Below are positions 20,555-44,702 of a stretch of 44,967 nt of DNA, piece by piece (within the stretch, counting starts at the first letter, position 1; each line of letters starts with the position of its first letter). This DNA comes from an uncultured delta proteobacterium (GTDB lineage Bacteria > Myxococcota_A > Polyangia > Polyangiales > Polyangiaceae): positions 300,948-345,914 of the forward strand of contig CAVSWE010000003.1 in NCBI GenBank assembly GCA_963731595.1. Direction: 5' to 3'. Under the pieces are notes generated by a model. The model made no database searches. It saw only the letters and a list, made by a program, of their open reading frames with translations, and was not told where the DNA came from. The translations under genes were made by a program, and so were the position numbers.

Positions 20555-20793
20555 GTTAGTTCCTTATGGTTCGATTATGGTGCCAGCAGCCTTGTCAAAG
20601 GCTAAAACGCCAAGGTTCCAATTCGTGCGGCTCGACGACCCTCAGTGTCAAACGAATCGACATAGGGACCCCTTAGCGAGAAGGATGCCTTTCCCCTCTG
20701 ATCTGAACGATAGGCGCGATACCCAATTGCGTCTGTGCGCCAGCGTACCCATTCCGTGCGGGATCCGCCGAGAGAGCAGGGTAAGTCCGTCGC

Positions 20794-26699: not shown

Positions 26700-27668
26700 T
26701 GCTGTTGACCCCTCGTTGGTGTCCACGAACTTTAGCGTTCCGATCGAGCATAGCTGCTTGATAGTTCTAAAGTCTGGCGGAAGCACTGGAGGACGTCTGT
26801 GCGGGATCGCACACAGAGAAGTTCTTCTCCACCTACTAGCACTCGCTATAAAGGGAAAGCCGCTCAAGATCAGTGGCGACGCGGATAGCTACAACCATCA
26901 AGATGGGAACGAGGATTAACGCCAAGCAGGCACCTTGTATCGGTTCATTGATGGGTCCCAAAAATCGCGACTTGTCGGCAACCTTGCTGGCGCGCTAAAG
27001 GTCGTGCCGCGCTTTATTCAGGCGCGACAGATTGGTCAGTTCTGTAAAGAGGGCCCGACTATGGCGGCCACGTAGCTGTGGGTCTAGGCATCAAGATCGA
27101 TGACACTATCGGCCAAACGGCATAATGTCCTGTCTGGACCCATGATTTCATTAGTTATGGTCGACAGCGCCATCGAACGACCACTGTCGGCGACTTCGCG
27201 GTATGGCCGCTTTTAGCCGGGCGTTGACCGGCAAGAACGTATCTCGGTTCTTGACCGCCTCCCGTCGCGTTGCGGACTGGGTCCTCGGTGGCTCAGACCG
27301 CTTGCCTGGGCCCCGATAGGTATCGGGCTGTGTCACAATCGACCAACAAGGCCACCAGCACGACGACTACCACGGTTCCTAAGCCGCTCGGATACCACCC
27401 ATAGCTGTGATGCCATGGACCAATCCGACATTGCGCCGACAGACCGCGCGCTCCGCCATACGGCGGGAAACGTACCCAATGCTTGGAAGATTTCCCATCG
27501 GCTGTCAGTGCAGCAGCGGACACTTGCGCTGGATCGGCGAGCGCAGTGGATATGCTGGCCCATCATGACTTCGAACTCGATATTGGCGGCGCACAGCTTC
27601 GCTCAGTGCGAGGGAAGTGCGAGCAAGTACCGCGCGCAGCGGATTACGGTAAGAAAGCGGTCGGTGAG

Positions 27669-28454: not shown

Positions 28455-28709
28455 TCGAATATTTTACGCCATCGAGCCGCTTCTTTGTCAGGTAGCGTAC
28501 GAAGGCTGGCGGATGCCACTCGACCCGGTTACCGCTGATTGCGCTGGAAAATCGGCCCGCTTCTGTGCGCAACCGCACGGACAGCACAGAGGAGCCTGGA
28601 TAAGAATGCTACAAATCGACTGAGCAATTTACGCGTTATTGGAATTGCAGCGGCACAGATTAGTGTGCTGCTGCAGTGTGAGAGTCAGCCCATTCAACGG
28701 AGGAACACT

Positions 28710-29156
28710 ATGAGCGAGAGCCTGTTTCGTCAACGCGTTCTACTTATTGGGATTGCCCTGGCGGGCGCGCTTGGGATCCTTATCGGTTGTGCATCGATGT
28801 CCCAGTCGTCGACCCAGCAAATAGTCCTTTCCGGAAGCAATGAGGTGCCTCCGGTAACGACTTCCGCATCGGGCACTGGAACCGTCACCATCAATCCCGA
28901 TCACACCGTCAGCGCAAGCATCACCGTAACAGGAATGGTGGCGACCGCATCACATATTCACGAAGGTGCCGTGGGTATCAACGGTCCCGTTATCGTTCCC
29001 TTCACCAAGACTGGCGACAACACATTCGTTGCACCTGCCGGGGCAAAGCTCACGGACAGCCAATACGCCAGTTACAAGGCGGGCAACCTGTATGTCAATG
29101 CACACAGCGCCCAGCATCCAGGCGGCGAGATCCGCGCTCAGCTCAAAGGCAATTGA
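28710..29156 (+). CDS. CHRD domain-containing lipoprotein
   Basis: GGAGGA precedes the ATG at 28710. The lipobox is LIGC. LSGSNEVPPVTTSASGTGTVTI...ASHIHEGAVGINGPVIV...LYVNAHSAQHPGGEIRAQL matches the CHRD pattern. Confidence 0.8.
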   Translation: MSESLFRQRVLLIGIALAGALGILIGCASMSQSSTQQIVLSGSNEVPPVTTSASGTGTVTINPDHTVSASITVTGMVATASHIHEGAVGINGPVIVPFTKTGDNTFVAPAGAKLTDSQYASYKAGNLYVNAHSAQHPGGEIRAQLKGN

Positions 29157-29522
29157 TGGCGAGCATCGTTGCGGGGCCCGGCGCCTAAGCGACGGGCTTA
29201 GTCTTACTCTCTAAGCAGCTCCGATATTGAATGCGTGCGCTAGCGTACAGACGCAACTGGGTATCGCGCCTATCTTTCGCATAAGAGGGGAAGGGCATCT
29301 TTCTCGCTAAGGGGCCGCTATTTCGATTCGCTTGACACTGAGGGTCATTGAGCTACAAGAAGTGCACTCTTCGTGCTTTAGCCTTTGAAGGGCCGATGAA
29401 AATCTCGCTCGCTGTACTTCGTAACGGTAGCACGGGAGACCGCGTGTCGCGGCTGGGATTCTCGTCCCGGCCGCATTTTCGTCCGTTCGTGCGCCCACGG
29501 TTTGCGACGAGAGGCCAAACCA

Positions 29523-30306
29523 ATGACAGACCAAAAACATACTAATAGGGTGTTGGCAAGCATTCCGCCAAAGGAGTATCAGCGATTACGGGCTCAACTC
29601 GAGCCGGTTACCCTGAGATTCGGGCAGGTACTCTACCAGCCAGGAAAACCGATTCAGCATGTCTACTTTCCCGTCGACTGCCTAATTTCCCTGCTTACGG
29701 CGGTCGACAAACGCCGGACGCTTGAGGTCGGCATGGTTGGCAACGAAGGCATGGCCGGGATGCCCTTCATCCTGGGGATTGGAGTCTCCGGAGTCCGCGC
29801 TCTTGTACAGGGCGGCGGCAACGCGCTTCGCATGGACGCGGCACATTTTCGTATCGAGTTCGACCGCAATCCACCATTGCAGCAGGCGCTCTACCGATAT
29901 ACGTATGCATTGATGGCGCAGATCTCGCAAACTGCGGCGTGCAACCGTTTTCACGAGACCGAAGCGCGCGTGGCCCGGTGGCTTTTGATGACCCGCGACC
30001 GCGTGGGATCGGACGAGTTTCCACTGACGCACGAATTTCTTGCGCATATGTTGGGCTTGCGGCGCGTGGGGGTCACGGAGGCCGCCAGCGCACTCAAGCG
30101 GCGCAAGCTAATCGGTTATAGCCGAGGCAAGATACACGATCCTAGATACCAAGGGGCTTAAGGCGGCGTCTTGCTCGTGCTATCAAGCCGTAAAGACGGT
30201 GTACGACCGCGCGCAGAACGCCAACGGCGTGAGACAAGGGCCACGTCGTCGTGTCGGCAATTCCGGACGGCACCACATCGCCAACGAGAAGCGATTGGCG
30301 TCGTAG
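29523..30306 (+). CDS. Crp/Fnr family transcriptional regulator, paralog of 27669-28454, with one frame disruption near 30137
   Basis: Collinear with the neighbouring paralog (LYQPGKPIQHVYFPVDCLISLL...GNEGMAG...LTHEFLAHMLGLRRVGVTEAASALKRRKLIGYSRGKI). After GKI the paralog-like tail ILDTKGLKAASCSCYQAVKTVYDRA is in the +1 frame. The true stop is uncertain (30161 as annotated, 30306 in the shifted frame). Confidence 0.75.
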
Positions 30307-30408
30307 GCACACGCCGCCCGCAAACGCCGTCGCTAGCCGCCGCCCCGGATCCCAACACGCTTCGGTGTCCAGGAACAACAAGCTCACGATATCACGCGGC
30401 GTCACTGC

Positions 30409-30993
30409 TCACCTCGACGCCACCACAAAGCGATCGGCGCTCATACGCAGCCAGGCACCGCCGGGATCGACGTCGTACGCGCGCGCCCACGCAGCAGCGT
30501 CGGTGTCGCCGTCGACATGAAATCCGTGGCGCGCTAGTAGCGCCGCCATCTCCTCCGGGCGATATCGCGATCGAAACGGCTCGCGGAGGAGCGCGGCGAG
30601 GAGGCCAGTAAAGCGGGTGGACCACTTCGGTTTGTTGTAGTGCACGAGCACGCGACTCTTCGGCGCCGAGCGTAGCTGGACCACGGCGAACGTGGCAGCG
30701 ACGGCGGCGGGCTCGAGGTACATGATCACGCCCTCCCAGACCCACGTCGTCGGGCACGACGGATCGTGTCCGGCGTCCTCGAGCGCGCCATCGAGTGCGT
30801 CGCGGGTGAAGTCGAACGGGACGAAGCGCACTTCGCGCGCCGCGACAGGAAAAGCCGCGATGCGTTCGCGCTTCTCCTTCTGCGTGTCGGGATGATCGAC
30901 CTCGAAGACGACACTGTCGGAGAGCTCCTTCATGCGCCAGGCGCGTCCGTCGAGGCCCACGCCGAGGATCACAATCTGCGCGCCCGGGTTCAT
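30409..30993 (-). pseudogene. Class I SAM-dependent methyltransferase (TIGR00027/LCM-like O-methyltransferase), probably N-terminally truncated
   Basis: QIVILGVGLDGRAWRM, VFEVDHPDTQKEKRERI and WVWEGVIMYL are typical of this family. The roughly 60-70 N-terminal residues expected are missing or overlap the divergent ChaN start, and no good start codon is seen. Confidence 0.5.
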
Positions 30994-31056
30994 CGTGCCT
31001 GGGACGAATTGCTGAGTGTGACAGGCCGAATCCAGAGCGCGATGTACACTGGTCGC

Positions 31057-31944
31057 ATGTTCCGAGCACGCCTCGGATTGGAAGTCGCCGCCTGTTTGCT
31101 TTGGCTGACCCCGGCTGCCGGTGCCTTGGCAGCAGCGGTTGAGCTTAACCCGACCCCTGGCGCACTGGTGCAGGCGATGCAAGGCCACCGCGTCGTCCTG
31201 CTCGGGGAGGTACACGACAATGCCGCACAACACGCGCTGCGAGCCGCGGCCTTGCGCCAATGGGTCCTGCAGGGCGCTCGTCCCGCTCTCGCGTTCGAGC
31301 AGTTCGACCGGGAACGTCAGGCCGACATCGAACGCGCCCGGCGCGAACGGCCAACCGACGCCGATTACCTCATCGCGCAAGCCAAGAGCGGCGGCGACTG
31401 GCGCTGGGAATCCTACCGTCCGTTCGTGGCTTTGGCGCTCGAATATGGACTACCGATCGTCGCCGCGAATCTGTCTCGCGGCGAGGCGATGCAGGTGGCA
31501 AAGGACGGCTGGCCTGCGCTTTTCGATTCGGCGACACGCAGCGCTCTTGCGCTCGACGCGCTACCCGCCGACTTCTGGCACAAACACGAGGATGCGATTG
31601 CCCTCGGCCATTGCAACTTGCTCTCGGCAGAAGAGCTGCCGGCCCTGGCGCGCGCACAAATGGCGCGCGACATCGTCATAGCGCGTTCGATCCGCCCTTA
31701 CATCGACCGGGGCGTCGTGCTCTTGACCGGAAATGGTCATGTGCGTCGTGACATCGGAGTTCCATTCTGGCTACCGGCTGATGCTGCGCAGAGTGCGCTT
31801 AGTATTGGCATGCTTGAGCGCGACGACGGATTGGCGTCCGAGTCCGCGGACGAATTCGATGCCTATGTAATCACCGAACGCGCCCAGCGAACGGACCCCT
31901 GCATAGGACTGACAAGAGACCTCAAGCATGCCACTTCGCCATGA
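31057..31944 (+). CDS. ChaN-like haem-binding/uptake (Tiki superfamily) protein
   Basis: A signal-like N-terminus (MFRARLGLEVAACLLWLTPAAGALAA) is followed by VVLLGEVHDNAAQHALRAA..., FEQFDRERQ, and LLTGNGHVRRDIGVPFWL (GNGH motif). The start at 31042 is an alternative. Confidence 0.7.
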   Translation: MFRARLGLEVAACLLWLTPAAGALAAAVELNPTPGALVQAMQGHRVVLLGEVHDNAAQHALRAAALRQWVLQGARPALAFEQFDRERQADIERARRERPTDADYLIAQAKSGGDWRWESYRPFVALALEYGLPIVAANLSRGEAMQVAKDGWPALFDSATRSALALDALPADFWHKHEDAIALGHCNLLSAEELPALARAQMARDIVIARSIRPYIDRGVVLLTGNGHVRRDIGVPFWLPADAAQSALSIGMLERDDGLASESADEFDAYVITERAQRTDPCIGLTRDLKHATSP

Positions 31945-32182
31945 GCGCAGGACAATCCCCTTCGGTACTAAGCGCGGAAGTCGAAGTGCGACGGACGAAG
32001 TGCCGAGCGTGACGCGCTCAATATGAAGAATTTCGCGCGAAGAAAGGCCGCGTCGCGCTCACTGGCTCCATATGGTTAAACAAGCCTGCCGTCGAATGCG
32101 TGCCAAGAACCCCGTACGACGAATGAGGTATAAAGAACCGGTTGAGTTCGTTCGTAGAGCACCCGACTACATCGATCCAAGA

Positions 32183-32731
32183 ATGTCGGACCGTCTAATG
32201 TCTCTCAAAACCGCTTGGCGGCTTATTTGCGTGGCCATGTTGTGGACCGGGGCTTGGATCTGCCATGCGCAGATGCATAGTGGAGAACTGAAGACCATTG
32301 CTATCCTTGAATTTGATCTTGTAGATGATCAGCACGAGCTTTCTCCTGCAACCGTCGAATATCAGCGTCTGACCGCAATCCATGACCAGTTGCAAGACGA
32401 GTTCGCCAAAAACGGTCTGTATCGCATCATCGACGTGGGACCAGCCACGGAGCTAATCAAGGTGCATCAATCCAGGTCCCAGCTACGTGAATGCAATGGT
32501 TGCGAGCTTGACATAGCTCGCTCGTTGCAAGCCGATCGGGTCTTGATTGGCTGGGTCCAGAAGGTGAGCAATCTGATTGTCAATATCAACATTCAGATTG
32601 AAGATGCGGCAACCGGCGCGATATTGCTGAACAAATCGGTCGACTTGCGCGGCAATACGGACGAGTCTTGGGGACGCGGCGTCTCCTATATCGTCAAAAG
32701 CATGATCGAGAAAAACCAAGGCAATCTTTGA
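32183..32731 (+). CDS. Periplasmic DUF3280/DUF2380-like protein
   Basis: A signal peptide (MSLKTAWRLICVAMLWTGAWICHAQ) is followed by IAILEFDLVDD..., CNGCELDIARSLQADRVLIGWVQKVSNLIVNINIQIED and DLRGNTDESWGRG. I recall this pattern for that family, but the name is from memory. The start may be 32198. Confidence 0.55.
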   Translation: MSDRLMSLKTAWRLICVAMLWTGAWICHAQMHSGELKTIAILEFDLVDDQHELSPATVEYQRLTAIHDQLQDEFAKNGLYRIIDVGPATELIKVHQSRSQLRECNGCELDIARSLQADRVLIGWVQKVSNLIVNINIQIEDAATGAILLNKSVDLRGNTDESWGRGVSYIVKSMIEKNQGNL

Positions 32732-32905
32732 CAAAACAATCCCGGTAAGTAGATCAGGTCGGTCGACGTCCTGAGCACCGGGTACTAAGTGCCTCGCGCC
32801 AAGTGCGTCGTGCTTCGAGCGACAACGCCGATGAGATTTGACGCTGATCAAAGCTAGGAATATGGTTGCCGAGAGATTGATGTTTCGGAACCCTTGGCGC
32901 TGCCG

Positions 32906-34516
32906 ATGAACCTTGCACGTGTCGCCTGTCTCACTGCTTTTGTCCTGGCAGGCTCGATTTCAATTAACTCGGCCGCGGGTCCGTCCGAGGATGCGGATGC
33001 CGCCTTCAAAAATGGTGACTACGCAACCGCGCTTCGCTTATCGCGTGAGTTGGCCGAACAGGGTGAAGCCTTTGCCCAATCTCGTCTCGGCGTGATGTAC
33101 CGCGACGGTCGTGGTGTGTTGCGGGACGATCAGCAGGCGGTGGAGTGGTTTCGCAAGGCGGCCGAGCAAGGCAGGGCAAACGCCCAAGACAATCTCGGTG
33201 GCATGTACGAAACGGGCCGCGGCGTCGCCAAGGACGACGCGGAGGCGGTCAAGTGGTATCGCAAAGCAACGGAGCAAGGCAATGCCATCGGCCAAGCCAA
33301 GCTCGGCTACATGTACGAAACCGGCCGTGGCGTCGCCAAGGATGAGGCGCAAGCGGTCGAGTGGTACCGCAAAGCTGCCGAACAGGGCAACACGATCGCC
33401 CAGACCAATCTTGGCTACATGTATGAAACCGGCCGCGGTGGTCTGCCACAGGATGATACGCAGGCGGTTATGTGGTTTCGCAAGGCCGCCGAGCAAGGTA
33501 ATACGATTGGTCAATCTCGTCTCGGAGCGATGTACCACGAGGGCCGGGGTGGTCTGCCGCAGGATGATAAGCAGGCGGTTGAGTGGTATCGCAAAGCGGC
33601 CGCGCAAGGTGACACAAACGCTAAGAACGTCCTAGCTTCGGTTGAACAAAGAGGCCACGAGGATGCTGACCTATCTCGCACGGTCGCGGACCTCGTCAAG
33701 GCGAACGAGAAAGACCTTCCCACCACACCAGTTGCCGACACCGAGCGCGCCGCCCTCGCCCACGAAATCACTGAAGCTACTCACGCACGCGAGATACTGT
33801 CCAATATGCCGGCGGATATCAAAGGGGGGTGGGATCCTGCAAACCCAGCCTCGAAGCTCCCACCGAAGCTGTTGGACGCGCTTCGCGCCACAGCCCTTGC
33901 TACGTTCCAGCCCGACCCGATCCTGACTTCCTTCGAGCAAAAATTGGCCGAAACGCTCGATGCTTCGACGTTGCTGATTGGGTTGCAGTGGGAGCGCTCC
34001 GACCTTGGACAGCATATGACCCGCCTTCAGCTCGAAGCGAAAGGGCCTGAACAACGCGCCGCTTACAAGGAGTTCGCTCGCCAATTCCTAAGCCAGGGCG
34101 GCATGGTCAATGACGGGCGCGCGCGCGCCTGCGCACAGGCAGACGTCCTCGAGAACAATACGGAGGTCATGCTCCCCTTTCTTGAAGCGGTCGCCACTGG
34201 CGGAATCATGGCGGCACTCACCCAACAGGGAAGGCCCCTAGATATGAAGGAAATAGAGCGTGCCATCGTCAAGATAAGGCCGCTGTTGCGCGAATCGGCG
34301 CGTCAAGGAGCGTTGGCGAGCTGCCTGTTCCAAAGCCGGGAGCTGACCGACACGGAGCTGGAGCAGTGGGTCGAATTCTTGCGCAGCGATGCCGGGGGGC
34401 GCTACGCACGGGGAACAAATGCGGCGATGAGGGATGCTCTGCTTGCACGGGCCGAAATCTTCACCCGCGTGATGCTTGAAATGGCGCGGCAACTCAAGGG
34501 GCGTGCAGAATCCTGA
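32906..34516 (+). CDS. Secreted Sel1-like (SLR/TPR) repeat protein with a roughly 280-aa non-repeat C-terminal domain
   Basis: A signal peptide precedes about 6 tandem approximately 36-aa Sel1 repeats (A.A..NLG.MYE.GRGV.KD...AV.WYRKAAEQG). The region from about residue 250 onward is non-repetitive and helical. The ORF is intact. Confidence 0.85.
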   Translation: MNLARVACLTAFVLAGSISINSAAGPSEDADAAFKNGDYATALRLSRELAEQGEAFAQSRLGVMYRDGRGVLRDDQQAVEWFRKAAEQGRANAQDNLGGMYETGRGVAKDDAEAVKWYRKATEQGNAIGQAKLGYMYETGRGVAKDEAQAVEWYRKAAEQGNTIAQTNLGYMYETGRGGLPQDDTQAVMWFRKAAEQGNTIGQSRLGAMYHEGRGGLPQDDKQAVEWYRKAAAQGDTNAKNVLASVEQRGHEDADLSRTVADLVKANEKDLPTTPVADTERAALAHEITEATHAREILSNMPADIKGGWDPANPASKLPPKLLDALRATALATFQPDPILTSFEQKLAETLDASTLLIGLQWERSDLGQHMTRLQLEAKGPEQRAAYKEFARQFLSQGGMVNDGRARACAQADVLENNTEVMLPFLEAVATGGIMAALTQQGRPLDMKEIERAIVKIRPLLRESARQGALASCLFQSRELTDTELEQWVEFLRSDAGGRYARGTNAAMRDALLARAEIFTRVMLEMARQLKGRAES

Positions 34517-34779
34517 GGACGCATGTACGGTCTTGACCGCGACGCAGTGCCGGTAGCGATCCTCGGGTGCGTCGCTGCACAGAAGCGCGCAGAAGCTAAA
34601 CAAACCCCGCTCGGAAGGCGAGGTCCTCGCACCTGGCACGGCGCACTGAGTTCTTAGCCGTCGTGCGAAGTGCTCCGAGCTCTGAACTGCGAATGACGCG
34701 CGGTTGCATCAACGGGTCCATCGCTCCCGGCTGGCGTTGAGGCGTGTACCATGAGACTGTTATTCGCAGAGCGGCGATC

Positions 34780-35349
34780 ATGAACACGAAAGCAAGGCTC
34801 GACGAAGCCAGCGCTCGTAGGATCGCGGCGGGGCGCTTAGCAGCGATTCAAGACCGCATAGTTGCTGGACTCGGGGCGCTGGGCCCACTACCAACGAAGC
34901 CCATAGCGCGAGAGCAGAGGATGACCGCTGTTCTCAGACGGGCATTCGGTGACTGGCTGCTTGGCGTAAGGCAATGGGGTCGTAGGACGGGGTATCTGGT
35001 TGCGCAACCCAGTGACCCGGACGGTTGGATTGCAATCGTACTTATCATGTATAACGCCCGCAGCGACCGAAAGCAATTCTGGGTCTTGGCGAGCATTTCG
35101 GCGCACGCCACCGCTCGGCTCTTAGAACGGCGGCGCGACGTGAACCTAGAGCGGATTCTTGAAGAGGAACTGGGCGGCGCGGCAGCGTTAATTGAGTTCG
35201 CCGTAAGGTTCTGCCTAAATAAACTTAGCGATGAAGAAGCGCGCCAGACCAGTTTCGTATTTAGCACGACAAATGGCGAATTCCGACTGACGCGCGACGG
35301 TGATTCGCTAGTCGCGACGACTTGGGTGCCCAAGAAGGCAGGGTCATAG
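34780..35349 (+). CDS. Hypothetical protein
   Basis: A 189-201 codon open frame with no recognisable motifs. The start is 34744 or 34780. Confidence 0.3.
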   Translation: MNTKARLDEASARRIAAGRLAAIQDRIVAGLGALGPLPTKPIAREQRMTAVLRRAFGDWLLGVRQWGRRTGYLVAQPSDPDGWIAIVLIMYNARSDRKQFWVLASISAHATARLLERRRDVNLERILEEELGGAAALIEFAVRFCLNKLSDEEARQTSFVFSTTNGEFRLTRDGDSLVATTWVPKKAGS

Positions 35350-35465
35350 GGAGTCTGCCCGGGCTCGCACTTGGTAGCGAGTCTCCGCACTTTGTACCTG
35401 GTGCTTCGAAGAACCATTTCGTATAACGATCAAGCATCCTCGACTCGCTTACGAAGCGGTGCCCA

Positions 35466-36041
35466 ATGAATGGAAAGATCATTCTAGTCAATGGTGCGTC
35501 GAGCTCGGGGAAGTCGACGTTCTGTCGGGCTCTTCAGGCACGCCTCGATGAACCCTTTTGGCATTTCTCAATTGATCACTTACGTGGTGCCGGCATCTTG
35601 CCTACGGCGCGCATCGAGAAGGGGGACTTTTCTTGGTCTGGAATGCGGCCAGCATTCTTCGAAGGATTTCACCGCTGCTTGCCAGCACTCGCCGAAGCCG
35701 GCAATAACCTAATCGTCGAGCACATCATTGAGACCAAGGCGTGGATGTCTCGCCTTACACACCTCCTTGAGTCATTTGACGTGTTCTTTGTTGGACTTCA
35801 TTGCCCACTTTCCGAGCTTGAGAAGCGCGAACTTCAACGCGGCGACCGACGGACAGGCGAAGCCCGCCAAGACTACGACGTGGTGCATACATTCGGGACC
35901 TATGACCACGAAATTAACTCGATCCAACTGCCTGAGGACAACGTCAATGAAGTGCTTAAGATGTGGCAGTTGCGAACGCTACCGTCCGCTATGGATAGGA
36001 TGCTGGCCGCCGAACGGCGAGCTATTCAAAATGCGCCCTAA
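35466..36041 (+). CDS. Chloramphenicol-phosphotransferase-like (CPT family) P-loop kinase
   Basis: MNGKIILVNGASSSGKSTFCRALQ (P-loop GxSSxGKS), FSIDHL and LIVEHI blocks, and a size of about 190 aa are typical of the CPT family. The ORF is intact. Confidence 0.75.
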   Translation: MNGKIILVNGASSSGKSTFCRALQARLDEPFWHFSIDHLRGAGILPTARIEKGDFSWSGMRPAFFEGFHRCLPALAEAGNNLIVEHIIETKAWMSRLTHLLESFDVFFVGLHCPLSELEKRELQRGDRRTGEARQDYDVVHTFGTYDHEINSIQLPEDNVNEVLKMWQLRTLPSAMDRMLAAERRAIQNAP

Positions 36042-36135
36042 CCACGCCATTGTGCCGATCCCAACGGACGACCAGAAAGGCCACCTACGGAAAGAGCTTT
36101 AGGACTGCTCGGGGTCGGTTCGGGACTGTCGATGA

Positions 36136-36288
36136 ATAGGCGGCTCTCGAGTAGCAGACAGCCGCGAATTCGAGCTCGCGGGAATTGCAGTGCACGTGGG
36201 CGCGCGGATTGCCGCGACGGCGCATGCCGGCGAGGTAGTCGTGTCGAGCACCGTGCGCGATCTTGTTGCCGGCTCAGGGCTCGAGCTA
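36136..36288 (+). pseudogene. Orphan C-terminal fragment of an adenylate/guanylate cyclase catalytic domain
   Basis: Reads ...EFELAGIAVHVGARIAATAHAGEVVVSSTVRDLVAGSGLEL. This is the conserved GxAVHxGARIxxxAxxGEVLVSxTVxDLVxGSG block, with no N-terminal part. It ends where the IS fragment begins. Confidence 0.5.
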
Positions 36289-36576
36289 ATGCCACATCAG
36301 CTCAACGTTGCGCTGGGCTTCCATCTCCAGCCGACGCGTCGACTGGATCCGGTTCAGGTAACCGTAGATGTACAGCTTGAGCAGAACGGAGGGGTGGTAC
36401 GCGGGCCGACCGGTCACCGCCGGGTCGATGCTCTTGAATCCCAGGCTGCGTAGCTCGAGTTCCTCGATAAAGGCTTCTACCACTCGGACCGGATTGTCCT
36501 CTGCAACGTAGTCGTCCAACGATTCCGGTAGTAAAGTGCCCTGGGTGCGGTCCACGCCTTCAATGAATCGCTTCAT
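36286..36576 (-). mobile_element. IS1182-family transposase, N-terminal 96-codon fragment only
   Basis: Reads MKRFIEGVDRTQGTLLPESLDDYVAEDNPVRVVEAFIEELELRSLGF...TGRPAYHPSVLLKLYIYGYLNRIQSTRRLEMEAQRNVELMW, the typical IS1182/IS5-type N-terminal (DUF772) domain. The DDE domain is absent. Confidence 0.75.
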
Positions 36577-36837
36577 AGGCTGCCCTCCGATACGCTTTAT
36601 CTACTTATAGAACATCTTTACGTTTTTACACAGGCTCGGCCAGGTGCAGACGGTCAGGGGCGCCGTCCAATTTCCCTGGAACCGGACACTCATCTCGGGC
36701 CTGCTTTGCTGGGGCGCGCACGGCATGAACTGGCCCCGTCCGCAACGACATGTAGGCCGCCGGTGCGGCAGGGCGTTCGGGAGGTAGGCCCCTGGAAATG
36801 ATTCGCCTACTAACGCCCTCGGTCCGACTTAGTAACG

Positions 36838-38010
36838 CTACTTTATCTGGTCAAACGCCCAATTGGGGATATCGCCGAGATTGGGAGGAACGGTCAACCA
36901 ATGGTCGGGCTGCTTCGCAAGCGCACGCCCCGCATCAAATGCTGCACGCATCTGTTTCGGATCAAAGGCGAGCGGGTCTTTACCGACGTTTACGTTGTCG
37001 GGAATCGCAACCATTTTGAAGTTGTAGCCTAGAAACTTGGCTCCGAAATAGGACCGCGTCATAGCCGTCAGCATAGACTGGTCCATCATCACGCTGACGG
37101 TCGTGGCTGCCACGGGCCCGATGGCCCTGCGCAAAGCCTCGGGCGGGTTATGAAGCCTACCGTTGTCAACCAGGTACACGTTACCTGGACCATATAGTGG
37201 AGGCGGGGGGCGCTCGGTCCCACCCAACCCTGCGATGACAACATTCGAACGGGCGGCCCCGTCGACGAACAGATGACCATCGATTTCCACCGGCGGAAAG
37301 ACGATGGGGAACGATGCAGAGGCGAGCAATACGTCACGATAAAGCGCGAGGTTTCCGTCCTTGGCGATCGCCGACATATTCCAGACCCAGGTCTGGCCGT
37401 AATCGATGTTGGTCGTGCCAACAAGCAGAATCCGGTTGTCGTCGTACGCGGCAGCCACGCGCTTTAACGTCTCCGCGGTAATGTGTTTAGCGATGAGTGC
37501 TCGCAGCGGCGTGGTGTCTGAGAGCGAATCAGCGCCGAACGCGAGGCTCAAGATCCCTCTTTCATTATGAACGTCTTTCTTGGTGATTTGCGTGTACATC
37601 TCTTCGAGCTGCGCATCGTCAGCCGGGGTGCCGAGCAGAGCGTGCGTCGCCAGTAAAGCTCCGGTGCTCACGCCGCCGACCATATCGAACTCGGGTCGTT
37701 GACCGCTTTCGCGCCAACCAAGCAAGAAGCCGGCCCCAAAGGCGCCGTTCTCGCCACCGCCTGAGAGGGACAGAATATTGAGCGCGCGCCCGTGCTTGCG
37801 CTCCATCTGACGGATAAGATTCGTGTCTCCCGCCGCAGCCGCGGCGTAGAGGGGCGAAAGCTGGTCCGGATTCAGCGGAGCGTGCCCATTTGGCAGCGTG
37901 GCATATGACGGAGCCTTTTGTGAAAGCACCCGTTCCGGAGCCGATGCACATCCCGCGAGCAGCACCGCTGCCACAACACCTACGAAAATAATCAGCTTTC
38001 TGTCTCTCAT
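36838..38010 (-). CDS. Patatin-like phospholipase family lipoprotein
   Basis: The lipobox is LLAGC. The oxyanion motif is LSLSGGGENGAFGAG, the nucleophile elbow is GVSTG (GxSxG), and the catalytic Asp context is FVDGA. The ORF is intact, and a start at 38031 is possible. Confidence 0.85.
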   Translation of the reverse strand: MRDRKLIIFVGVVAAVLLAGCASAPERVLSQKAPSYATLPNGHAPLNPDQLSPLYAAAAAGDTNLIRQMERKHGRALNILSLSGGGENGAFGAGFLLGWRESGQRPEFDMVGGVSTGALLATHALLGTPADDAQLEEMYTQITKKDVHNERGILSLAFGADSLSDTTPLRALIAKHITAETLKRVAAAYDDNRILLVGTTNIDYGQTWVWNMSAIAKDGNLALYRDVLLASASFPIVFPPVEIDGHLFVDGAARSNVVIAGLGGTERPPPPLYGPGNVYLVDNGRLHNPPEALRRAIGPVAATTVSVMMDQSMLTAMTRSYFGAKFLGYNFKMVAIPDNVNVGKDPLAFDPKQMRAAFDAGRALAKQPDHWLTVPPNLGDIPNWAFDQIK

Positions 38011-38160
38011 ATTCAGGTCCGTTCTGCTCATCAGGAAGCAAGTTTCTTCAGCGCAATCTGCGAATGATAATCATGTAGCCGGCCTCCTCGCCGCGGTTAA
38101 GCGGCGGGGTTAAAGTCAATTTGCGAAATGGACTTTGACCCAAAGGAGACCGACATGAAA

Positions 38161-38188
38161 TATTGTGGCATAGATATTGTGGCATAGA
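38161..38188. repeat. Perfect 14-bp tandem duplication (tattgtggcataga x2)
   Basis: Read directly from the sequence. It lies 9 nt left of the CTAG that flanks the IS5-like element. Confidence 0.9.
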
Positions 38189-38196
38189 CCGCTTGT

Positions 38197-39520
38197 CTAG
38201 CAGCCTGATGCAAAACTGGACATTTCTCGATTATCGGCTACCTTGTGAATAAGGTCCGACTCCGAGAAAGAAACACAATGCGCGGTCATCAGGAACCTCA
38301 AGAGTCAGATGTTTAGTTACTTCTCGCCGGAGTCGCGGGTGCCGGTGGATCATCCGCTGCGCAGCATCAAGGCGCTACGCCGATCCGGGTGCTCAAGGAG
38401 CTGTACGCGGGACTTCGATGCACTGTACGCGAGACACGGGCCGGCCCTCGATTCCGCCGGAGCGACTGCTCGAAGGGCCAGTCTGCTGATCGCGCTGTAT
38501 TCGGTGCGCTCGGACCGGCATGTTCTGCCAGATGCTCGACTACAACATCCTGTTTCGCTGGTTCCTGGACATGAGCCTGGAGGATGCGGGGCTTGGACCA
38601 GTCGAACTTCTCGCGCCTGCGCGAGCGGCTGGTCGATAGCGAGGATCTGGCGCAGCGCTTCTTCGATGCGATCGTGAAGGTCGCGCGCGCGAGGGAGCTG
38701 CTGTCCTCGGAGCACCTGACGGTGGACGGCACGCTGATCGAGGCGTGGGCGGGAGCCAAGAGCTTCAAGCCCAAGGACGGACCGCCGCCGGCGCTCGGAC
38801 GGTCGAGGCGGAGTCAATTTCCGCGGCGAGCACCGCGCACCAACGACACCCATGCTTCGACGACCGATCCGGAAGCCAAGTCCGCCCGCAAAGGCAAAGG
38901 CAAGGAAGCCAAGCTGTGCTTTGGCGGCCATGCGCTCATGGAGAACCGCAACGGACTGTGCGTCGATATCCGGATGAGTTCGGCGCTCGAGACCGAGACC
39001 GCGCGGCCGAGGCAGCTGCTGAAGCGCCAGCGACGCAAGCGGCTGAAGCCGACCAGCGCTGGGCGCCGACAAGGGCTACCACAGCAAGGCATTTCGTGCG
39101 CATTTCCTGCGCCGCCGAGGCATCCGCCCGCACATGGCGCAGATCGAAGGGCGCAACACGCCAGGGCTGGATGCACGCACCACGCGTCATGCGAGTTACA
39201 GCGATGAGCCAGACGAAAGCGCAAGCGCGTCGAAGAGATCTTCGGCTGGATGAAAGCGTACGGCGGACTGCGCCGCACGCTGCTTCCGTGGCCTGCGCCC
39301 GCGTGCAGCTGCACGCCTACCTCGTCGGTGCGGCCTACAACCTGCTGCGGCTCACTCGATTGCGGCCGCTTACAGGGTAGTTGCGTCCAGATATAGGCCA
39401 TAGCCTTCAAACTCAGCAAAGCAGCGCGGTTACAAAGTCAGAACGGCTCATCTGAACCCCAAAAAGATCGAAGCGATGTTATCTCTCACCGTATTCGGCC
39501 GTTCTGCATCGGCCTGCTAG
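38197..39520 (+). mobile_element. IS5-family insertion sequence with imperfect terminal inverted repeats, CTAG at both ends, and a decayed transposase gene
   Basis: The left end is CTAG-CAGCCTGATGCAAAAC (38197-38216). The right end reverse complement is CTAG-CAGGCCGATGCAGAAC (39501-39520), giving 13 of 16 matches after CTAG. The transposase reading frames lie between them. Confidence 0.7.
38278..39380 (+). pseudogene. IS5-family (DDE, InsH-type N-terminus) transposase, with many frame disruptions
   Basis: Pieces across the three frames: MRGHQEPQ, MFSYFSPESRVPVDHPLRSIKA, LIALYSVRSDR, LDYNILFRWFLDMSLEDAGLDQSNFSRLRERLVDSEDLAQRFFDAIVKVARARELLSSEHLTVDGTLIEAWAGAKSFKPKDGPPP, HASTTDPEAK.ARKGKGKEAKLCFGGHALMENRNGLCVDI, GADKGYHSKAF, IRPHMAQIEGRNTPGLD, EEIFGWMKAYGGLRR, VQLHAYLVGAAYNLLRLTRL. 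Confidence 0.8.
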
Positions 39521-39599
39521 AGCACGAAGGGCAGCAACGGGTCAGTTTGCGACGGCGGGGCGAAGGTTGGCTGCTGTATGTCCTTCACCAGCCGCTCGG

Positions 39600-40811
39600 T
39601 CGAATCGCGTCAATGCCGGCGACCGGCCAAGAGCAGTCGGGTGGCGCCGCCACCCAAATTGCCGGAAAGGGGACGCTCACGGGGCCAGGCTAGGCCGATT
39701 GGCGGGTTCCTTGATCTGTGGCAAAGCTCGTACCTCGGGCTCTGTCACATTGCCCGCTTCGGGCCACCCTTTTGCCAAGGAGAAGCGGAATGAATTGACC
39801 CACACGAAGAACGGCTTGCCCGCCGCCTTGGCCTTGTCGATGAACTTCACCGAGTAATCGAGGATGTCCTCGTCGACCGTTTCCATGTTGTATTTGATGC
39901 CGGGCATCGGGTGCGGTGGCAGCGGACCCATATCCTCCAATCCCACTCGCGTGCACATCATCTCGCATTTGTCGCCGAAATACGCGGCCAGGCTGACCCC
40001 GGAGAATGGGTGGTATCTGCAAGAAGCGGTGATGTCCCAACTCGACGACGTGGTTGGCGGCCTGCTGGACAAGCTGAAGGCCGAGGGGCTTGAGGACAAT
40101 ACAATCGTTGTGTTCACGACCGATAACGGCGCCGAGAACTTCACTTGGCCGGATGGCGGCAACACGCCCTTCGCCGCGGGCAAGGGGACGATCATGGAAG
40201 GTGGCATGCGCGTGCCAATGATCGTTCGCTGGCCGAGTCACGTCCCGGCCGGGAAGGTCGAAAATGGAATCATGTCGGGTATGGACTTCTTCCCGACATT
40301 TGTTGCCGCGGCTGGCGATCCGAACATCAAGGACGAACTGATCAAGGGCAAGCAGTTGGGTGACAGGACCTACAAGGTTCATCTCGATGGCTACAACCAA
40401 CTGGACATGTTGACCGGCAAGGTGCCTTCCAACCGACACGAAATCTTTTACTTTGCCGAGGGCACTTTGGGCGCGGTTCGTATCGATGACTGGAAATTCA
40501 GACTGATCGACCAGCCCGAGGGCATGATCGGGGGAACGGTCAAAGTCAATGCGCCGACGCTCGTCAATCTCCGGCTCGATCCGTTTGAGCGAATGGGGTG
40601 GTCGAGGGGCAACGACGGGTCCTTCGAATATTTCGGAGCTTTCTATCAACATGAATTCTGGCGCTTCGTTTTTCTTCAGCAGAAGGTCGGCGAATATGCC
40701 CAGACATTCCTCGACTTTCCGCCGATGCAGCGTGCAGCGAGCTTCAACCTCGACGCGGTCAAGGCCGAAATTGCCGCGCGAATCGCGGAGATGAAGGGCA
40801 GGACGGAATAA
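39600..40811 (+). pseudogene. Arylsulfatase (COG3119 type). It is 5'-truncated, frameshifted in its upstream part, and carries a 148-bp internal inversion (39794-39941).
   Basis: The downstream part is intact in frame 0: NPTRVHIISHLSPKY...IVVFTTDNGAENFTWPDGGNTPFAAGKGTIMEGGMRVPMIVRWP...DPFERMGW. The immediately preceding residues (LEDMGPLPPHPMPGIKYNMETVDEDILDYSVKFIDKAKAAGKPFFVWVN) are encoded on the opposite strand. The upstream plus strand carries RFGPPFAKEKRNE and weaker sulfatase-like traces. The sulfatase N-terminus with the catalytic C/SxPxR motif is absent. Confidence 0.75.
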
Positions 40812-40820
40812 TGGCTTTGC

Positions 40821-41130
40821 TTGGCGTCGCCGATCGTGAATAGCGCTAAGTTGAACCGGTCCGCCAGCTTGAGGCTCGGGCTGGTCGTGTTGGCGTTGGG
40901 TGCCGGCCTACTCGCGTCGGGCCCGGCGGCGAGTGAAGACGTGGACATGAACGACGGGCAGTGGCACTTCGGCATCACGCCCTACGGATGGCTGCCGAGC
41001 CTTCATGGCAACCTGAACCTCATTCTGCCGTCGGGGTCCACTTCGGCGGCAGTGGAAATCAACCCGAGCAGCTACCTGTCCAACCTCCAGTTCGGATTGA
41101 TGGTTGCCGGCGAGGCGCGCAAGGGTGAAG
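40821..41130 (+). pseudogene. Outer-membrane beta-barrel protein, N-terminal fragment (about 100 codons)
   Basis: A signal peptide (LGLVVLALGAGLLASGPAASE) is followed by WHFGITPYGWLPSLHGNLNL...SYLSNLQFGLMVAGEARKG. This is typical of the first strands of a family of about 250-300 aa OM proteins. Similarity stops at about 41125, where an integrase scrap begins on the other strand. Confidence 0.5.
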
Positions 41131-41222
41131 ATCGTGAGGTCCGCCAAATGTTCCGGGAGCGCCGCGATTAGCTGCTGGGCGTGGTCTTTGGTCAGTACGC
41201 TTTCGCTTGGTCCGGATAGCAT
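41118..41222 (-). pseudogene. Tyrosine recombinase/phage integrase internal fragment (about 35 codons)
   Basis: SVLTKDHAQQLIAALPEHLADLTIFTLA resembles the LT.eE...Ll.alp.hl..l..faL.TG block preceding the catalytic domain of tyrosine integrases. There is no N-terminus and no catalytic residues. Confidence 0.4.
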
Positions 41223-41343
41223 TTAGCGCCGCATGCGGAGCGTATGGCCGAACATGTGGGCACGTTTTGGGCACAGCCCGTGGACGACAATCAAAAGCCG
41301 CGCAAGAAGGCGGCCACATGACATTGTTTCCACAGCAAAAATC

Positions 41344-41388
41344 TGGTGGCCAAGGGCGGAATTGAACCACCGACACACGGATTTTCAG
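41344..41388 (-). tRNA. tRNA-Phe(GAA) 3' fragment from the anticodon loop to CCA. It is not a complete gene and is probably an att-site repeat.
   Basis: The reverse strand reads CTGAAAA-TCCGT-GTGTC-GGTGG-TTCAATT-CCGCC-CTTGGCC-A-CCA. That gives the anticodon loop with GAA, the 3' anticodon stem strand, the variable loop, a complete T arm, the 3' acceptor strand, the discriminator and CCA. The sequence 5' of it cannot form the D arm or the acceptor 5' strand. Confidence 0.75.
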
Positions 41389-41740
41389 TCTGATAACAGG
41401 TGAAGTAAAGTTGCTCGGTTTGTCAATTAATCAATGGCTTGCGAAGCTTGCCACTTTTCCGTTTTCGCCAATTCCAGCCTCACTCAGGCTGATTTTGGGC
41501 ACTGCCAATCTCAGTTCGTCACAAACGCGTCTCGCAGCAAAATGAACCTGTCGCTACTCGGATCTCATCTAGCAGACACGGTCAGGTCGGCTTTCGTTCG
41601 CGACAGGTCTAGTTTCGTTAAGAGGCGCTGCAATCAAGTCAGTCCAAGTCGCTTCGCAATGCCGGACGCCAGCACATGATAGCCAACCCAGTTAACGGTT
41701 TACAAAACGTTTCGTACGAACGTAGAAGTTTGTTACCGCT

Positions 41741-42046
41741 TCAGACGCGCGGCTGTCGACCTCGACTGGTATGCCAAAACGCAAGCACGTCAACAAACTC
41801 TCCCGCCACCCGATAGTAGATGTAGTACCGCACCCGGGCCAGCGTCACACGACGCACGCCCTTGGCGCGGCTGCGACGAGCCGGTGCACCTATGCCAGGC
41901 TGCATGCATAGCACATCCAGCATCTCGGCAACGTCGTGGTGTATGGCATTGGGTGCCGATGGTCGGTTTCGGGCCCACCACTCCGCCGCCTCTTCGATTT
42001 GGCTCAGGGCCCGCTGAGAGACCCTGATCTTGCGCAGTAAAGTCAA
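41741..42046 (-). CDS. ParE/RelE-family type II toxin
   Basis: A 101-aa protein with a TTG start. ...VRRVTLARVRYYIYYRVAGEFVDVLAFWHTSRG is the typical ParE/RelE C-terminal pattern. It overlaps the upstream antitoxin stop by 4 nt (TTGA). Confidence 0.75.
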   Translation of the reverse strand: MTLLRKIRVSQRALSQIEEAAEWWARNRPSAPNAIHHDVAEMLDVLCMQPGIGAPARRSRAKGVRRVTLARVRYYIYYRVAGEFVDVLAFWHTSRGRQPRV

Positions 42047-42264
42047 CCGAATCGGCGCAGCCGCTCGAGCAGTTGCTCACCTGAGACGAACTCCCCTCGC
42101 TCGATTTGAGCGATGGAGTCGAGCAGCTCGTCCTCCTCTCCAGGAGTTAGCTCGAATGCTTCTTCGTTGTCGCGGAGTACCACGGTAACAGTCGAGCCTT
42201 CGGCCAAGGACTCCCCCTCGACCACGACTTTTCCGTCGACAACGATGCCGGTAGTGACTTTCAT
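42043..42264 (-). CDS. Type II antitoxin partner of the ParE/RelE toxin
   Basis: A 73-aa acidic protein, MKVTTGIVVDGKVVVEGESLAEGSTVTVVLRD...EEDELLDSIAQIERGEFVSGEQLLERLRRFG. Its position and translational coupling are typical of an antitoxin. Confidence 0.65.
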   Translation of the reverse strand: MKVTTGIVVDGKVVVEGESLAEGSTVTVVLRDNEEAFELTPGEEDELLDSIAQIERGEFVSGEQLLERLRRFG

Positions 42265-42405
42265 GCTCGGTATTCTACCTTTGACCAGAGTCCGTGTCTC
42301 GTCTCCTCGTCTCCGCTCGACTTGCCGCCGGTGGCTGCAATCTCTTGCGGTTTCAACCGGTCAATGCAACGCACTATAGCCTGAGCAATCAGAGGAGTGT
42401 TGCAG

Positions 42406-42700
42406 ATGAGACCTCGGATCTATTACACGGAGAGTCAGAGGGCGCTGATGTGGGAGCGCTGGCAGAAGGGTGATTCTCTACACCAAATCGCGCGGTTGTT
42501 TGATCGGAACCACCCATCTATAGCGCGGATTTTAGGCGAGACGGGTGGGATCCGTCCGGCGCCACGAAAGCGCTCGCGATTGGCGTTGACCTTGGCCGAA
42601 CGCGAAGAGATCTCGCGCGCGGTGGTTGCCGGTCATTGCATGCGTTCGATAGCAGTGCACCTCGGCCGAGCGCCATCGACGATCAGTCGGGAGCCTCTCT
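42406..42700 (+). mobile_element. IS30-family transposase, N-terminal HTH fragment only
   Basis: MRPRIYYTESQRALMWERWQKGDSLHQIARLFDRNHPSIARIL...LTLAEREEISRAVVAGHCMRSIAVHLGRAPSTISRE matches the double-HTH N-terminus of IS30 transposases. Similarity ends after STISRE, and the DDE domain is absent. Confidence 0.7.
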
Positions 42701-42820
42701 TGGCGAAACGTCTCGAGCCTTCGTGGCGGCACCTGCGTGAGCGCGTCGGTACCGGCACTGCCTCGGACGCAACGTTCCGAGCGCCACACAAATGCTCAAC
42801 CGATTGCGCCGACACGCAGC

Positions 42821-42979
42821 CTATGGCCGCTTGCCAACGACCTTTCCGTTCTCCCAAACGTAGATGCGCGTGCCGTGCACGCGCGCAGTCTTCCTTGCTT
42901 GGCGCGCCGCTCTTTGAATTGCCCGGGCCACAGCCGCGAAGAAACGTTCGTTCTCCTTGGATTTCGCGTGTTTTATCAT
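42821..42979 (-). CDS. Small (52-aa) basic protein translationally coupled to the zeta-like kinase (below the ORF-track cutoff)
   Basis: The manual translation is MIKHAKSKENERFFAAVARAIQRAARQARKTARVHGTRIYVWENGKVVGKRP. Its ATG overlaps the upstream TGA (ATGA at 42976-42979). Confidence 0.45.
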   Translation of the reverse strand: MIKHAKSKENERFFAAVARAIQRAARQARKTARVHGTRIYVWENGKVVGKRP

Positions 42980-43527
42980 GGACCTCGCTCGATCAGCTTT
43001 GGTTTGTCTCCCGCATTATCGTAGACGGTCCACACGTCTGCCATGGGCCGATAAATGGCCCAAAAATTATCCCAGCTTCGCTGAAATCGACGCCGTACGT
43101 CGACCTCGGGGACATCATGTCCCCCTTGCTTGACGCGCTCGGCAATCCTTCGCAGGGCGAGCCGTGGGGACGGTAGCTTCAAGTAAACGATCTCCACTCT
43201 ATAGCCGGCCGTCTTCCAGCGTTTTAACCGCGACAGGTATGCAACGCCACTGAGTGTACTCTCAAACGCAAAATCTACCCGTTCGGCTGCGAGCCGGTCC
43301 AGTTCCCTAAGAAAGATTCGTCCCGCGGCCAGCGCTGCCATTTCGGGGCGAAGTGGAGCGAGACCCGCGGCGATCAAATCTGCGTTCACAAAGTGGATCA
43401 CCTTGGCGTCAATTGGAAGAAATTGACGAGCGAAGGTCGTCTTCCCTGCCCCGTTCGGCCCGGCGATGACGATGCAGCGGTGTGCTTTTCGACGCCGCCG
43501 GGTGGCAGCACTCGCCCTAGTCGTCAT
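42976..43527 (-). CDS. Zeta-toxin-like / AAA_33-type P-loop kinase
   Basis: IVIAGPNGAGKTTFARQFLP (Walker A), FVNADLIAAGL, FAFESTLSG and VEIVYLKLPSPRLALRRIAERVKQGGHDVPEVDVRRRF are typical of the zeta toxin family. The ORF is intact. Confidence 0.75.
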   Translation of the reverse strand: MTTRASAATRRRRKAHRCIVIAGPNGAGKTTFARQFLPIDAKVIHFVNADLIAAGLAPLRPEMAALAAGRIFLRELDRLAAERVDFAFESTLSGVAYLSRLKRWKTAGYRVEIVYLKLPSPRLALRRIAERVKQGGHDVPEVDVRRRFQRSWDNFWAIYRPMADVWTVYDNAGDKPKLIERGP

Positions 43528-43864
43528 CGTGGCTTCTTGTTGTTTTGGAGATCACTATTATAGCTAGCCCTTTTAGTGCAAGCGCGCACGGCGCTGGCTC
43601 GCTTGCCCAGGAAGCTGGGACGCCATCGCGCATTGCGGTGCAACCGAGGGCCTGCTGCATAGCCCACAGCGCCCATCGAGGAGTGAAGGGCGGCTATGAG
43701 CAACAGAGCCGCCAGCGGGCGCCTCGGTTCCAATGGGCGTGAACGACCCCAATCCGGTCATCGAGCCTTATGAAAACCAATGGGATGGACCCCTCCTCAC
43801 CTAGCGGCATCGATGTGCCAGACCGGAAGTGTCAGCCACCAGTCAACGGGAGAAGGAGTCCACC

Positions 43865-44400
43865 ATGAAGCTTATTCGCGTTGGGGTCGATTTGGCAAAG
43901 AACGTCTTCCAGGTCCACGGTGTAGATCGGAACGAGAAAGCGATATGGTGCCGCAAGCTAGGGCGGGAGAGCTGGGTGAAGATTCTGCTGGAGACCGTTG
44001 AGTCTGGCTGTGAGATTGGCATGGAGTCGTGCGGTGGCGCGCACCATTGGGCTCGCCAACTGCAGGCGCACGGGTTGAAGGTGAGGATGATTGCGCCGCA
44101 GTTCGTCAAACCGTATGTGACGAGTAACAAGAATGACGCCAACGATGCCGAGGCGATCTGTGAGGCAATGAGCCGGCCCAAGATGCGCTTTGTGGCGGTG
44201 AAGACGGTGGAGCAACAAGACATCCAGGCGGTACACCGAATTCGCGCCGAGCTGACCAAGCAACGCACAGCCAAAGGGAACCAGATCCGGGGCCTGGTCG
44301 CCGAGTACGGGTTGGTGGCACCTAAGGAGCTGGAGCATTTGCGCAGGGCGTTACCCTGTTGGTTGGAAGACGCAGAGAACGGCTTGAGCGGGCGGTTCCG
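43865..44400 (+). mobile_element. IS110-family transposase, N-terminal (DEDD) domain fragment
   Basis: Reads MKLIRVGVDLAKNVFQVHGVDRNEKAIWCRKL...GMESCGGAHHWARQLQAHGLKVRMIAPQFVKPYVTSNKNDANDAEAICEA...IQAVHRIRAELTKQRTA..NQIRGLVAEYG. Similarity decays after about residue 180, and the C-terminal Transposase_20 domain is absent. Confidence 0.75.
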
Positions 44401-44702
44401 GCGACTACAGGTCGATCAACCGCGTCGCAAACAGGAGCACATCCACCACGATTGCTAAGCAAACCGAACGATGGCAAACAGGTCGAACCGGCGCCGGCAG
44501 ATCCCGAGAACGTCCATGTGCGAGAAGCACGAAAAACCAATGGGGAGCTGGCGCGCGAATAGCCCATCATGGCCCGGCATCGTCAAATCGATGCGGCAGT
44601 TAGAGGCCGGATATACGTGAGCAGTCGTACCTCACCGCCAAAGATCGGAATGCTTGCAAACGAGGAGGGGTCCATATACGGACGTTCGCATAACGTAATC
44701 CT

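Follow-up and report, generated by a model that had tools for sequence, protein, structure and literature searches.

Throughout, the window means the whole stretch of 44,967 nucleotides that was analysed. It contains the remains of an arylsulfatase gene whose first surviving codons, a piece of 144-148 bp, lie in reverse orientation, and this flip is real, inherited and fixed. On balance it is probable that this structural scar arose through one illegitimate three-breakpoint event, in which an inversion was combined with an adjacent deletion. A sequence-only reading of the window had described the inversion as lying inside the gene, a placement that has to be revised because the segment is found at the truncated 5' edge and its left flank is unrelated DNA. 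The coordinates of the features are collected in Table 1.

Table 1. Positions of the arylsulfatase relic, its junctions and the neighbouring elements in the window
Feature	Positions	Strand	Content	Basis
IS-like element	38201..39516	plus	1316 bp, inserted at CTAG, which is duplicated (38197-38200 and 39517-39520)	
Left flank (U)	39517..39793	none	277 bp of non-sulfatase DNA, 63.5% GC, adjoining the inverted fragment	
Inverted arylsulfatase fragment	39794..39937	minus	codons 212-259 (EDMGPLPP...FFVWVN)	tblastn, profile HMM, blastn
CAAT, ambiguous right-junction zone	39938..39941	none	4 bp; reverse complement of 'A TTG' or end of codons 258-259 (gtC AAT)	
Direct part of arylsulfatase relic	39942..40811	plus	codons 260-548 and stop codon	tblastn, alignment A1
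ParE-family toxin and upstream 73-aa putative antitoxin	41741-42264	minus	within the mobile-element set past the relic	
IS30-like N-terminal HTH fragment	42397-43176			
IS110-family DEDD transposase fragment	43829-44458			

The segment 39794-39941 (148 bp) starts with ATTG and finishes with CAAT, as had been read from the letters, and its minus-strand translation, LEDMGPLPPHPMPGIKYNMETVDEDILDYSVKFIDKAKAAGKPFFVWVN, aligns with residues 211-259 of intact 548-aa arylsulfatases (tblastn, 77-88% identity, E 1e-21 to 4e-25). When six homologs were placed on the window by tblastn, residues of about 211-262 fell on positions 39940-39785 of the minus strand (E 1e-21 to 4e-25) and residues of about 259-548 on positions 39939-40808 of the plus strand (about 1e-160), and a profile HMM matched the minus-strand segment at positions 211-263 (E 1.2e-27). 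The proposal of the sequence-only reading that the minus strand encodes the missing sulfatase codons is thus borne out by both methods, at a level far above chance. In alignment A1 the minus-strand peptide corresponds to the homolog residues immediately ahead of NPTR(A/V)HIISHLSPKY. With codon 259 at the left end of the segment and codon 260 just past its right end, the flipped piece is exactly what is absent between these two codons, as is expected of a micro-inversion. From 39942 onward the plus strand, reading PTRVHIISHLSPKY..., meets no stop codon before that at 40809-40811; the sulfatase does resume at 39942, as had been claimed, with residues 260-548 at about 80% identity, and over 290 aa the direct part is about 80-85% identical to the homologs (tblastn, E 1e-157 to 2e-171).

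Re-inversion of the segment gave a translation that retrieved thousands of arylsulfatases from a search of 5.8 billion protein clusters, with full-length 548-aa arylsulfatases showing 75-83% identity across 100% of the query. Alignment to intact orthologs, which had been proposed as a check, showed that the re-inverted sequence is collinear at the DNA level with 15 homologous genes, of which two close homologs are 84-86% identical to it and 13 further-off metagenomic genes 68-71% identical. The segment by itself matches one of the homologous loci, L003, in reverse orientation at 87.7% DNA identity (blastn). Because the inverted and the direct part are equally similar to L003 (88% and 85% DNA identity), both derive from one gene copy.

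The C-terminal half of the gene is homologous to and collinear with the family, residues 260-548 on the plus strand and residues 211/212-259 on the minus strand, and the restored fragment covers only positions 142-300 of the 301 positions of the Pfam profile PF00884. In alignment A1, columns 1 to about 210 are empty, the region of the SCTAGR motif included, and tblastn with word size 2 detected no N-terminal sulfatase remnant anywhere in the 45-kb window. Functional members are marked by a formylglycine motif (C/S-x-P/A-x-R; the homologs have SCTAGR) and by the metal ligands, neither of which is found here. The first approximately 210 codons, including the catalytic formylglycine half, are gone, and the locus is a relic that encodes no functional sulfatase. 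The relic pieces have a GC content of 57% and the frame runs through 339 codons with 0 frameshifts; on the direct part, gene callers report an ORF of either 286 aa (GTG at 39951) or 315 aa (ATG at 39864). The relic is decaying, since both single substitutions between its copies alter an amino acid, and since a 97.7% identical relative (L081, which begins at window position 40150, past the junctions) has indels together with 9 nonsynonymous and 2 synonymous changes. Those homologs that are named are mostly alphaproteobacterial, and the relic may be foreign DNA.

Truncation was also observed in a relative. P0001 (L002 4545-7530), with 83% identity the closest homolog of full query coverage among the matches listed, is itself 5'-truncated and begins MGDDVGW. 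A 477-aa DUF772 transposase gene finishes 23 bp upstream of P0001 in L002, which is another mobile-element strike on a sulfatase of the same family.

The DNA to the left of the segment gave a different picture from that of the sequence-only reading. In that reading, the sulfatase had been read up to "...RFGPPFAKEKRNE" on the left, which is mis-framed. The frame that joins the restored segment reads ...PASGHPFAKEKRNE / ...SVTLPASGHPFAKEKRNE, and PRWGK(I/V)GKQ, part of the motif PRWGK(I/V)GKQx-I-x-D-x-GP that is present at this place in 120 of the 120 listed homologs, is missing from the window. Left of about 39794, no sulfatase homology was found on either strand by tblastn (word size 2), blastn (word size 7) or the profile HMM. 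This HMM, for which 103 full-length homologs were used, was applied without filters to the six frames of 39400-39960; only the minus-strand piece was matched, and the flank scored below zero. Furthermore, blastn similarity to every homolog gene ends 13 nt within the segment, and none reaches the flank. The claim that re-inversion restores one continuous ORF therefore holds for its right side, which is collinear with the homologs, and fails for the left stretch, which is not sulfatase. After re-inversion, the frame does stay open leftward for about 75 stop-free codons in DNA of 63% GC, which is unremarkable; we estimate that such an open frame arises by chance about 12% of the time.

Searches for an identity of the left flank were likewise negative. 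No frame in it has a GC3 signal indicative of coding, comparison with 76 patatin loci, 15 sulfatase loci and the rest of the window gave no match, an exact 24-mer from it had 0 matches in the JGI metagenomes, and it contains no Rfam family. Two candidates were considered and rejected. A minus-strand WPEAGN resembling WPDGGN and short inverted matches to 40138-40189 were mutually non-collinear and were judged to be chance similarities of GC-rich DNA, and collinear tblastx matches to L013 9741-10105 were too weak and non-syntenic to be taken as the origin of the flank. Since the flank is not sulfatase and about 210 codons have been lost, the left inversion junction coincides with the point of 5' truncation, which speaks for an inversion coupled to a deletion, with three breakpoints. 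A simple two-breakpoint inversion would keep the original neighbours on both sides, and here only the right flank, from codon 260 onward, is the gene.

The left junction, 39793/39794, reads ...GCGGAATGA / ATTGACCCAC..., and the right junction reads ...CCCATATCCTC-CAAT-CCCACTCGC.... Plus-strand blastn similarity to L002 and L003 already begins at 39938, where the homologs read GTC AAT CC(C/A/T) ACT, while minus-strand similarity is secure from GAG at 39935-39937 leftward, with EDM found in 3 of the 120 homologs. The 4-bp ambiguity of the breakpoints that had been described stands, with the correction that the codon GAA ends at 39794 instead of 39793, an offset within these 4 bp. Residue 211 is Ile in 120 of the 120 listed homologs, and the restoration proposed in the sequence-only reading gives Leu (TTG). 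Because of this invariant Ile, an inverted duplication of CAAT is favoured over a pre-existing ATTG/CAAT pair, and CAAT at 39938-39941 is probably the direct end of codons 258-259, with ATTG at 39794-39797 as its inverted copy. The repeat search gave only ATTG/CAAT and no inverted repeat longer than 4 bp bounding the segment, in agreement with the sequence-only reading. Only 0.5% of random 148-mers drawn from the window carry an inverted repeat of 4 bp at their ends, and because chance produces this so rarely, the end signature is meaningful and non-random.

The arrangement is shared by other contigs. L001 (ENA ERZ25039546 contig_25596, 506 kb) is 99.7% identical to window positions 28623-38204 and identical over 39517-40100, both junctions included; it is without 38201-39516, and it diverges from the window past about 41396. 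L080, a second contig of the same sample (54 kb), is 100% identical over 39517-42461, is likewise without 38201-39516, and has a 3-kb IS66 insertion at window position 42461 (L080 8599-11663). The 286-aa ORF beginning with GTG at 39951 is a member of a 5-member protein cluster, and an 84-aa ORF across the left junction is on record for three contigs, the longest of 1.35 Mb, whose 286-aa ORF differs by one residue (A to P). Four distinguishable haplotypes have the truncated gene and the junction-spanning ORFs in common; in the window, L001 and L080 both junctions were read directly, and the fourth, the 1.35-Mb contig, is known through the database ORF record only. The copies differ in the IS at 38201, the IS66 insertion, the right flank and single amino-acid changes. 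The scar-bearing contigs with a retrieved sample accession belong to one ENA series, and they are to be read as different haplotypes from possibly related samples, not necessarily from independent sequencing technology. An un-flipped allele did not appear in the protein search, in which no near-identical match of full coverage was present among the 120 listed of 8000 scored candidates, and when metagenomes were scanned with a 23-mer taken from the segment, nothing closer than homologs of 68-71% identity came back. The arrangement is older than the IS movements that distinguish the strains.

The sequence-only reading had considered both a real micro-inversion and a local assembly artefact, and it is the former that the base-identical junctions in L001 and L080 and the ORF on the 1.35-Mb contig uphold. 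A local assembly or polishing error, with the segment in direct orientation in the true genome, might be suspected from the frameshifts of an error-prone type in related MAG loci (the L013 sulfatase and patatin genes) and in the IS at 38201-39516. However, such an error would have had to recur identically in copies that differ by IS, flank and substitutions; moreover, the relic is without frameshifts, and re-inverting the segment yields no intact gene because the left flank is not sulfatase. With the arrangement shared by distinct haplotypes, we consider an artefact to be effectively excluded and very improbable. Even less credible, to the point of being negligible, is a programmed invertible switch of the inverton or shufflon kind that flips a coding segment, for which the sole support is the discrete inverted segment with its short terminal inverted repeats. 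At 4 bp the inverted repeat is below the length of a recombinase site, the target gene is without its catalytic half whichever the orientation, one orientation was present in all copies seen, and no restored allele was among the listed protein matches. In addition, neither the ORFs scanned near the junction nor the Pfam annotation of L001 and L080 showed a serine or tyrosine invertase, the stretch of 28.6-36.8 kb being covered by the precomputed annotation of matching loci; the neighbours that this search returned were patatin, DUF772, IS30-like, IS110-like and IS66 transposases, and ParE.

As for the history of the scar, a single event would have involved three breakpoints, namely the boundary of the left flank, codon 211/212 and codon 259/260, and it would have flipped the 144-148 bp piece while deleting everything upstream of it. 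One route would be an inter-strand template switch, in which the nascent strand would copy leftward through codon 260 and CAAT, jump to the opposite strand at codon 212, copy rightward to the end of codon 259, and then re-prime far upstream; in four-point terms the order would be 1-3-2-4, points 1 and 3 overlapping by 4 nt and the return lying far away. The other route would be end-joining, in which a staggered break at CAAT would be filled in on both ends and a second break at codon 211/212 would be accompanied by loss of the upstream DNA; the CAAT/ATTG at the two ends of the segment would follow from this filling-in. The sequence alone fits both routes. Foldback (snap-back) priming was excluded, with a duplication no longer than 4 bp. 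We infer the order and number of events from sequences among which the ancestral or intermediate arrangement is not represented; in the synteny comparison of 76 genome loci, only the patatin gene was conserved at the DNA level and its flanks were not, so that the ancestral arrangement was not recovered. A single event is favoured because it avoids a coincidence: in any two-step history, the second breakpoint, although independent, would have to come no farther than about 4 bp from an earlier junction.

This requirement weighs on both two-step histories. The more plausible of the two, though unlikely, is an in-place inversion of codons 211-259 between a pre-existing 4-bp repeat pair, ATTG and CAAT, while the gene was intact or already dead, followed by an independent upstream deletion that ended at the left junction. 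The ATTG/CAAT ends, the perfect collinearity with homologs upon re-inversion and the richness of the region in IS and in haplotype-specific deletions and insertions are all consistent with it. Against it, the deletion endpoint would have to lie within about 4 bp of the junction, with 0 sulfatase residues detectable left of 39794, and the ancestor would need Leu (TTG) where all of the 120 homologs have Ile. A larger inversion, from codon 259/260 to the boundary of the left flank, would have brought the reverse complement of codons 1-259 beside that flank, with a later deletion of the reverse complement of codons 1-210 and the remaining block. With no microhomology needed at codon 211, it would account for the junction of the flank with reverse-complemented codon 259 and for the shared breakpoint at 259/260, but the deletion would have to stop exactly at the old right junction, where codon 260 follows after at most 4 bp of other DNA, and the 45-kb window holds no N-terminal remnant; we consider this history improbable. 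The chances are about even that the scar records one complex replication or repair error, an opposite-strand template switch (or a filled-in staggered break) with a long-range return, which was fixed naturally in an uncultured environmental bacterium. The scar is without function, and the short ORFs that gene callers place across it are by-products.

Each of these processes has a counterpart among known systems. The quasi-palindrome model of Ripley was generalised as a four-point model, in which the order 1-3-2-4 leads to an in-place inversion and a few bases may become terminal inverted repeats (Loytynoja & Goldman 2017, PMC5453318). In the scar the reverse-complement relation is shown, and the 4-bp CAAT overlap fits the model without proving it, but the return point is not adjacent, and at least 630 bp (codons 1-210) and more upstream DNA were lost. 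Typical events of this kind are also reportedly shorter than the 144-148 bp of the inverted piece. In MMBIR/FoSTeS, which has been described mainly for eukaryotic events of kilobases to megabases, one event produces several junctions, which may include a deletion together with an inverted inserted fragment, with microhomology of zero to few bases. The scar would be alike in being a multi-junction single event, but it is a sub-kilobase change in a bacterial pseudogene, for which the mechanism is deduced from the junctions only. Inversions by staggered double-strand breaks, described for Drosophila, duplicate the breakpoint sequence in inverted orientation, and a second process for comparison is bacterial Ku/LigD end-joining with fill-in. 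CAAT in opposite orientation at the two ends is what would be expected from a filled-in 4-nt overhang; in contrast, the duplication in the scar is only 4 bp long, and a third break or resection would be needed for the upstream loss. Invertases of the Hin/Gin/Fim type share with the scar a discrete segment opposite to its surroundings, but the scar has no repeats of recombinase length, no invertase gene was seen among the ORFs scanned or annotated, all copies seen have a single orientation, and the gene is dead. Inversions and adjacent deletions mediated by IS would suit an IS-dense, strain-variable region with a copy-variable IS-like element 277 bp away; this origin was rejected, however, as neither junction (39793/39794 or 39941/39942) touches an IS end and both are seamless.

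On one side the relic is neighboured by a patatin-like phospholipase gene (36838-38031, minus strand), on the other by mobile-element genes, of which the ParE, IS30-like and IS110-family pieces form a mobile-element graveyard just downstream. The IS at 38201-39516, which has 16-bp terminal inverted repeats with 13 of 16 positions matching, inserted recently, since it is absent from the near-identical L001 and L080, and it inserted after the scar was formed, since both of these contigs have the scar without it. Its transposase frame, beginning MFSYFSPESRVPVDHPLRSIKAL, is broken across at least three frames, the pieces of which had no Pfam match; the element is either degenerate and was moved in trans, or its sequence was poorly polished. 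Past about 41396, similarity to L001 is lost save for a 35-bp repeat, which is also found at L001 14470-14504, and no tRNA or integration site was found near 41400. The region is a strain-level rearrangement hot spot, in which three near-identical haplotypes differ structurally. Directly after the relic, a 116-aa ORF (40821-41171) has an N-terminus resembling a signal peptide, and its protein-like character fades past about residue 95; it had no Pfam match and no synteny with other sulfatase loci, and probably represents another truncated gene belonging to the relic.

The nearest relatives of the patatin gene are from uncultured betaproteobacterial MAGs. The gene (36823-38047, compared with L004-L013, L040 and L063) has 81-93% DNA identity to copies in many MAGs, and the similarity breaks off no more than about 15 bp from either end of the gene, with unrelated flanks; it seems to occur in variable contexts and may be mobile. 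In one uncultured betaproteobacterial MAG (L013 6168-9195), a different, paralogous arylsulfatase is followed directly downstream by a patatin gene of 90% identity, and each of the two is broken into several frames in that assembly. Elsewhere in the window, a 182-nt inverted repeat (20595-20776 and 29207-29388, 80% complementary, arms 8.4 kb apart) and a 38-nt pair close by (19797-19834 and 28846-28883) may represent inverted paralogous genes. At 33124-33669, inside a 540-aa ORF (32894-34516), a unit of 108-111 nt occurs five times in tandem at 66-79% identity; the L001 homolog of this ORF is annotated as Sel1 repeat. A 467-aa ORF on the minus strand at 25464-26867 contains four beta/gamma-crystallin domains (Pfam PF00030, E 2e-59), which is an uncommon architecture in bacteria.

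Taken as a whole, the finding is an ordinary decay scar of a known mechanistic kind, non-functional and situated in an IS-rich variable region. Its biological weight is small, the gene being already dead and the scar functionless. It nevertheless illustrates how a small flipped piece can lead gene callers to report spurious ORFs, in this case of 84, 286 and 315 aa, which are on record in public protein collections, and it offers a clean bacterial example of a three-breakpoint inversion and deletion with a 4-bp end signature. As a strain-level marker the region around it is useful, near-identical strains differing there by three IS-type events. If the proposed history is true, short inversion-deletion events such as those catalogued in primate genomes would also shape decaying bacterial genes, and the scars of pseudogenes could be mined to measure how frequently such events occur.
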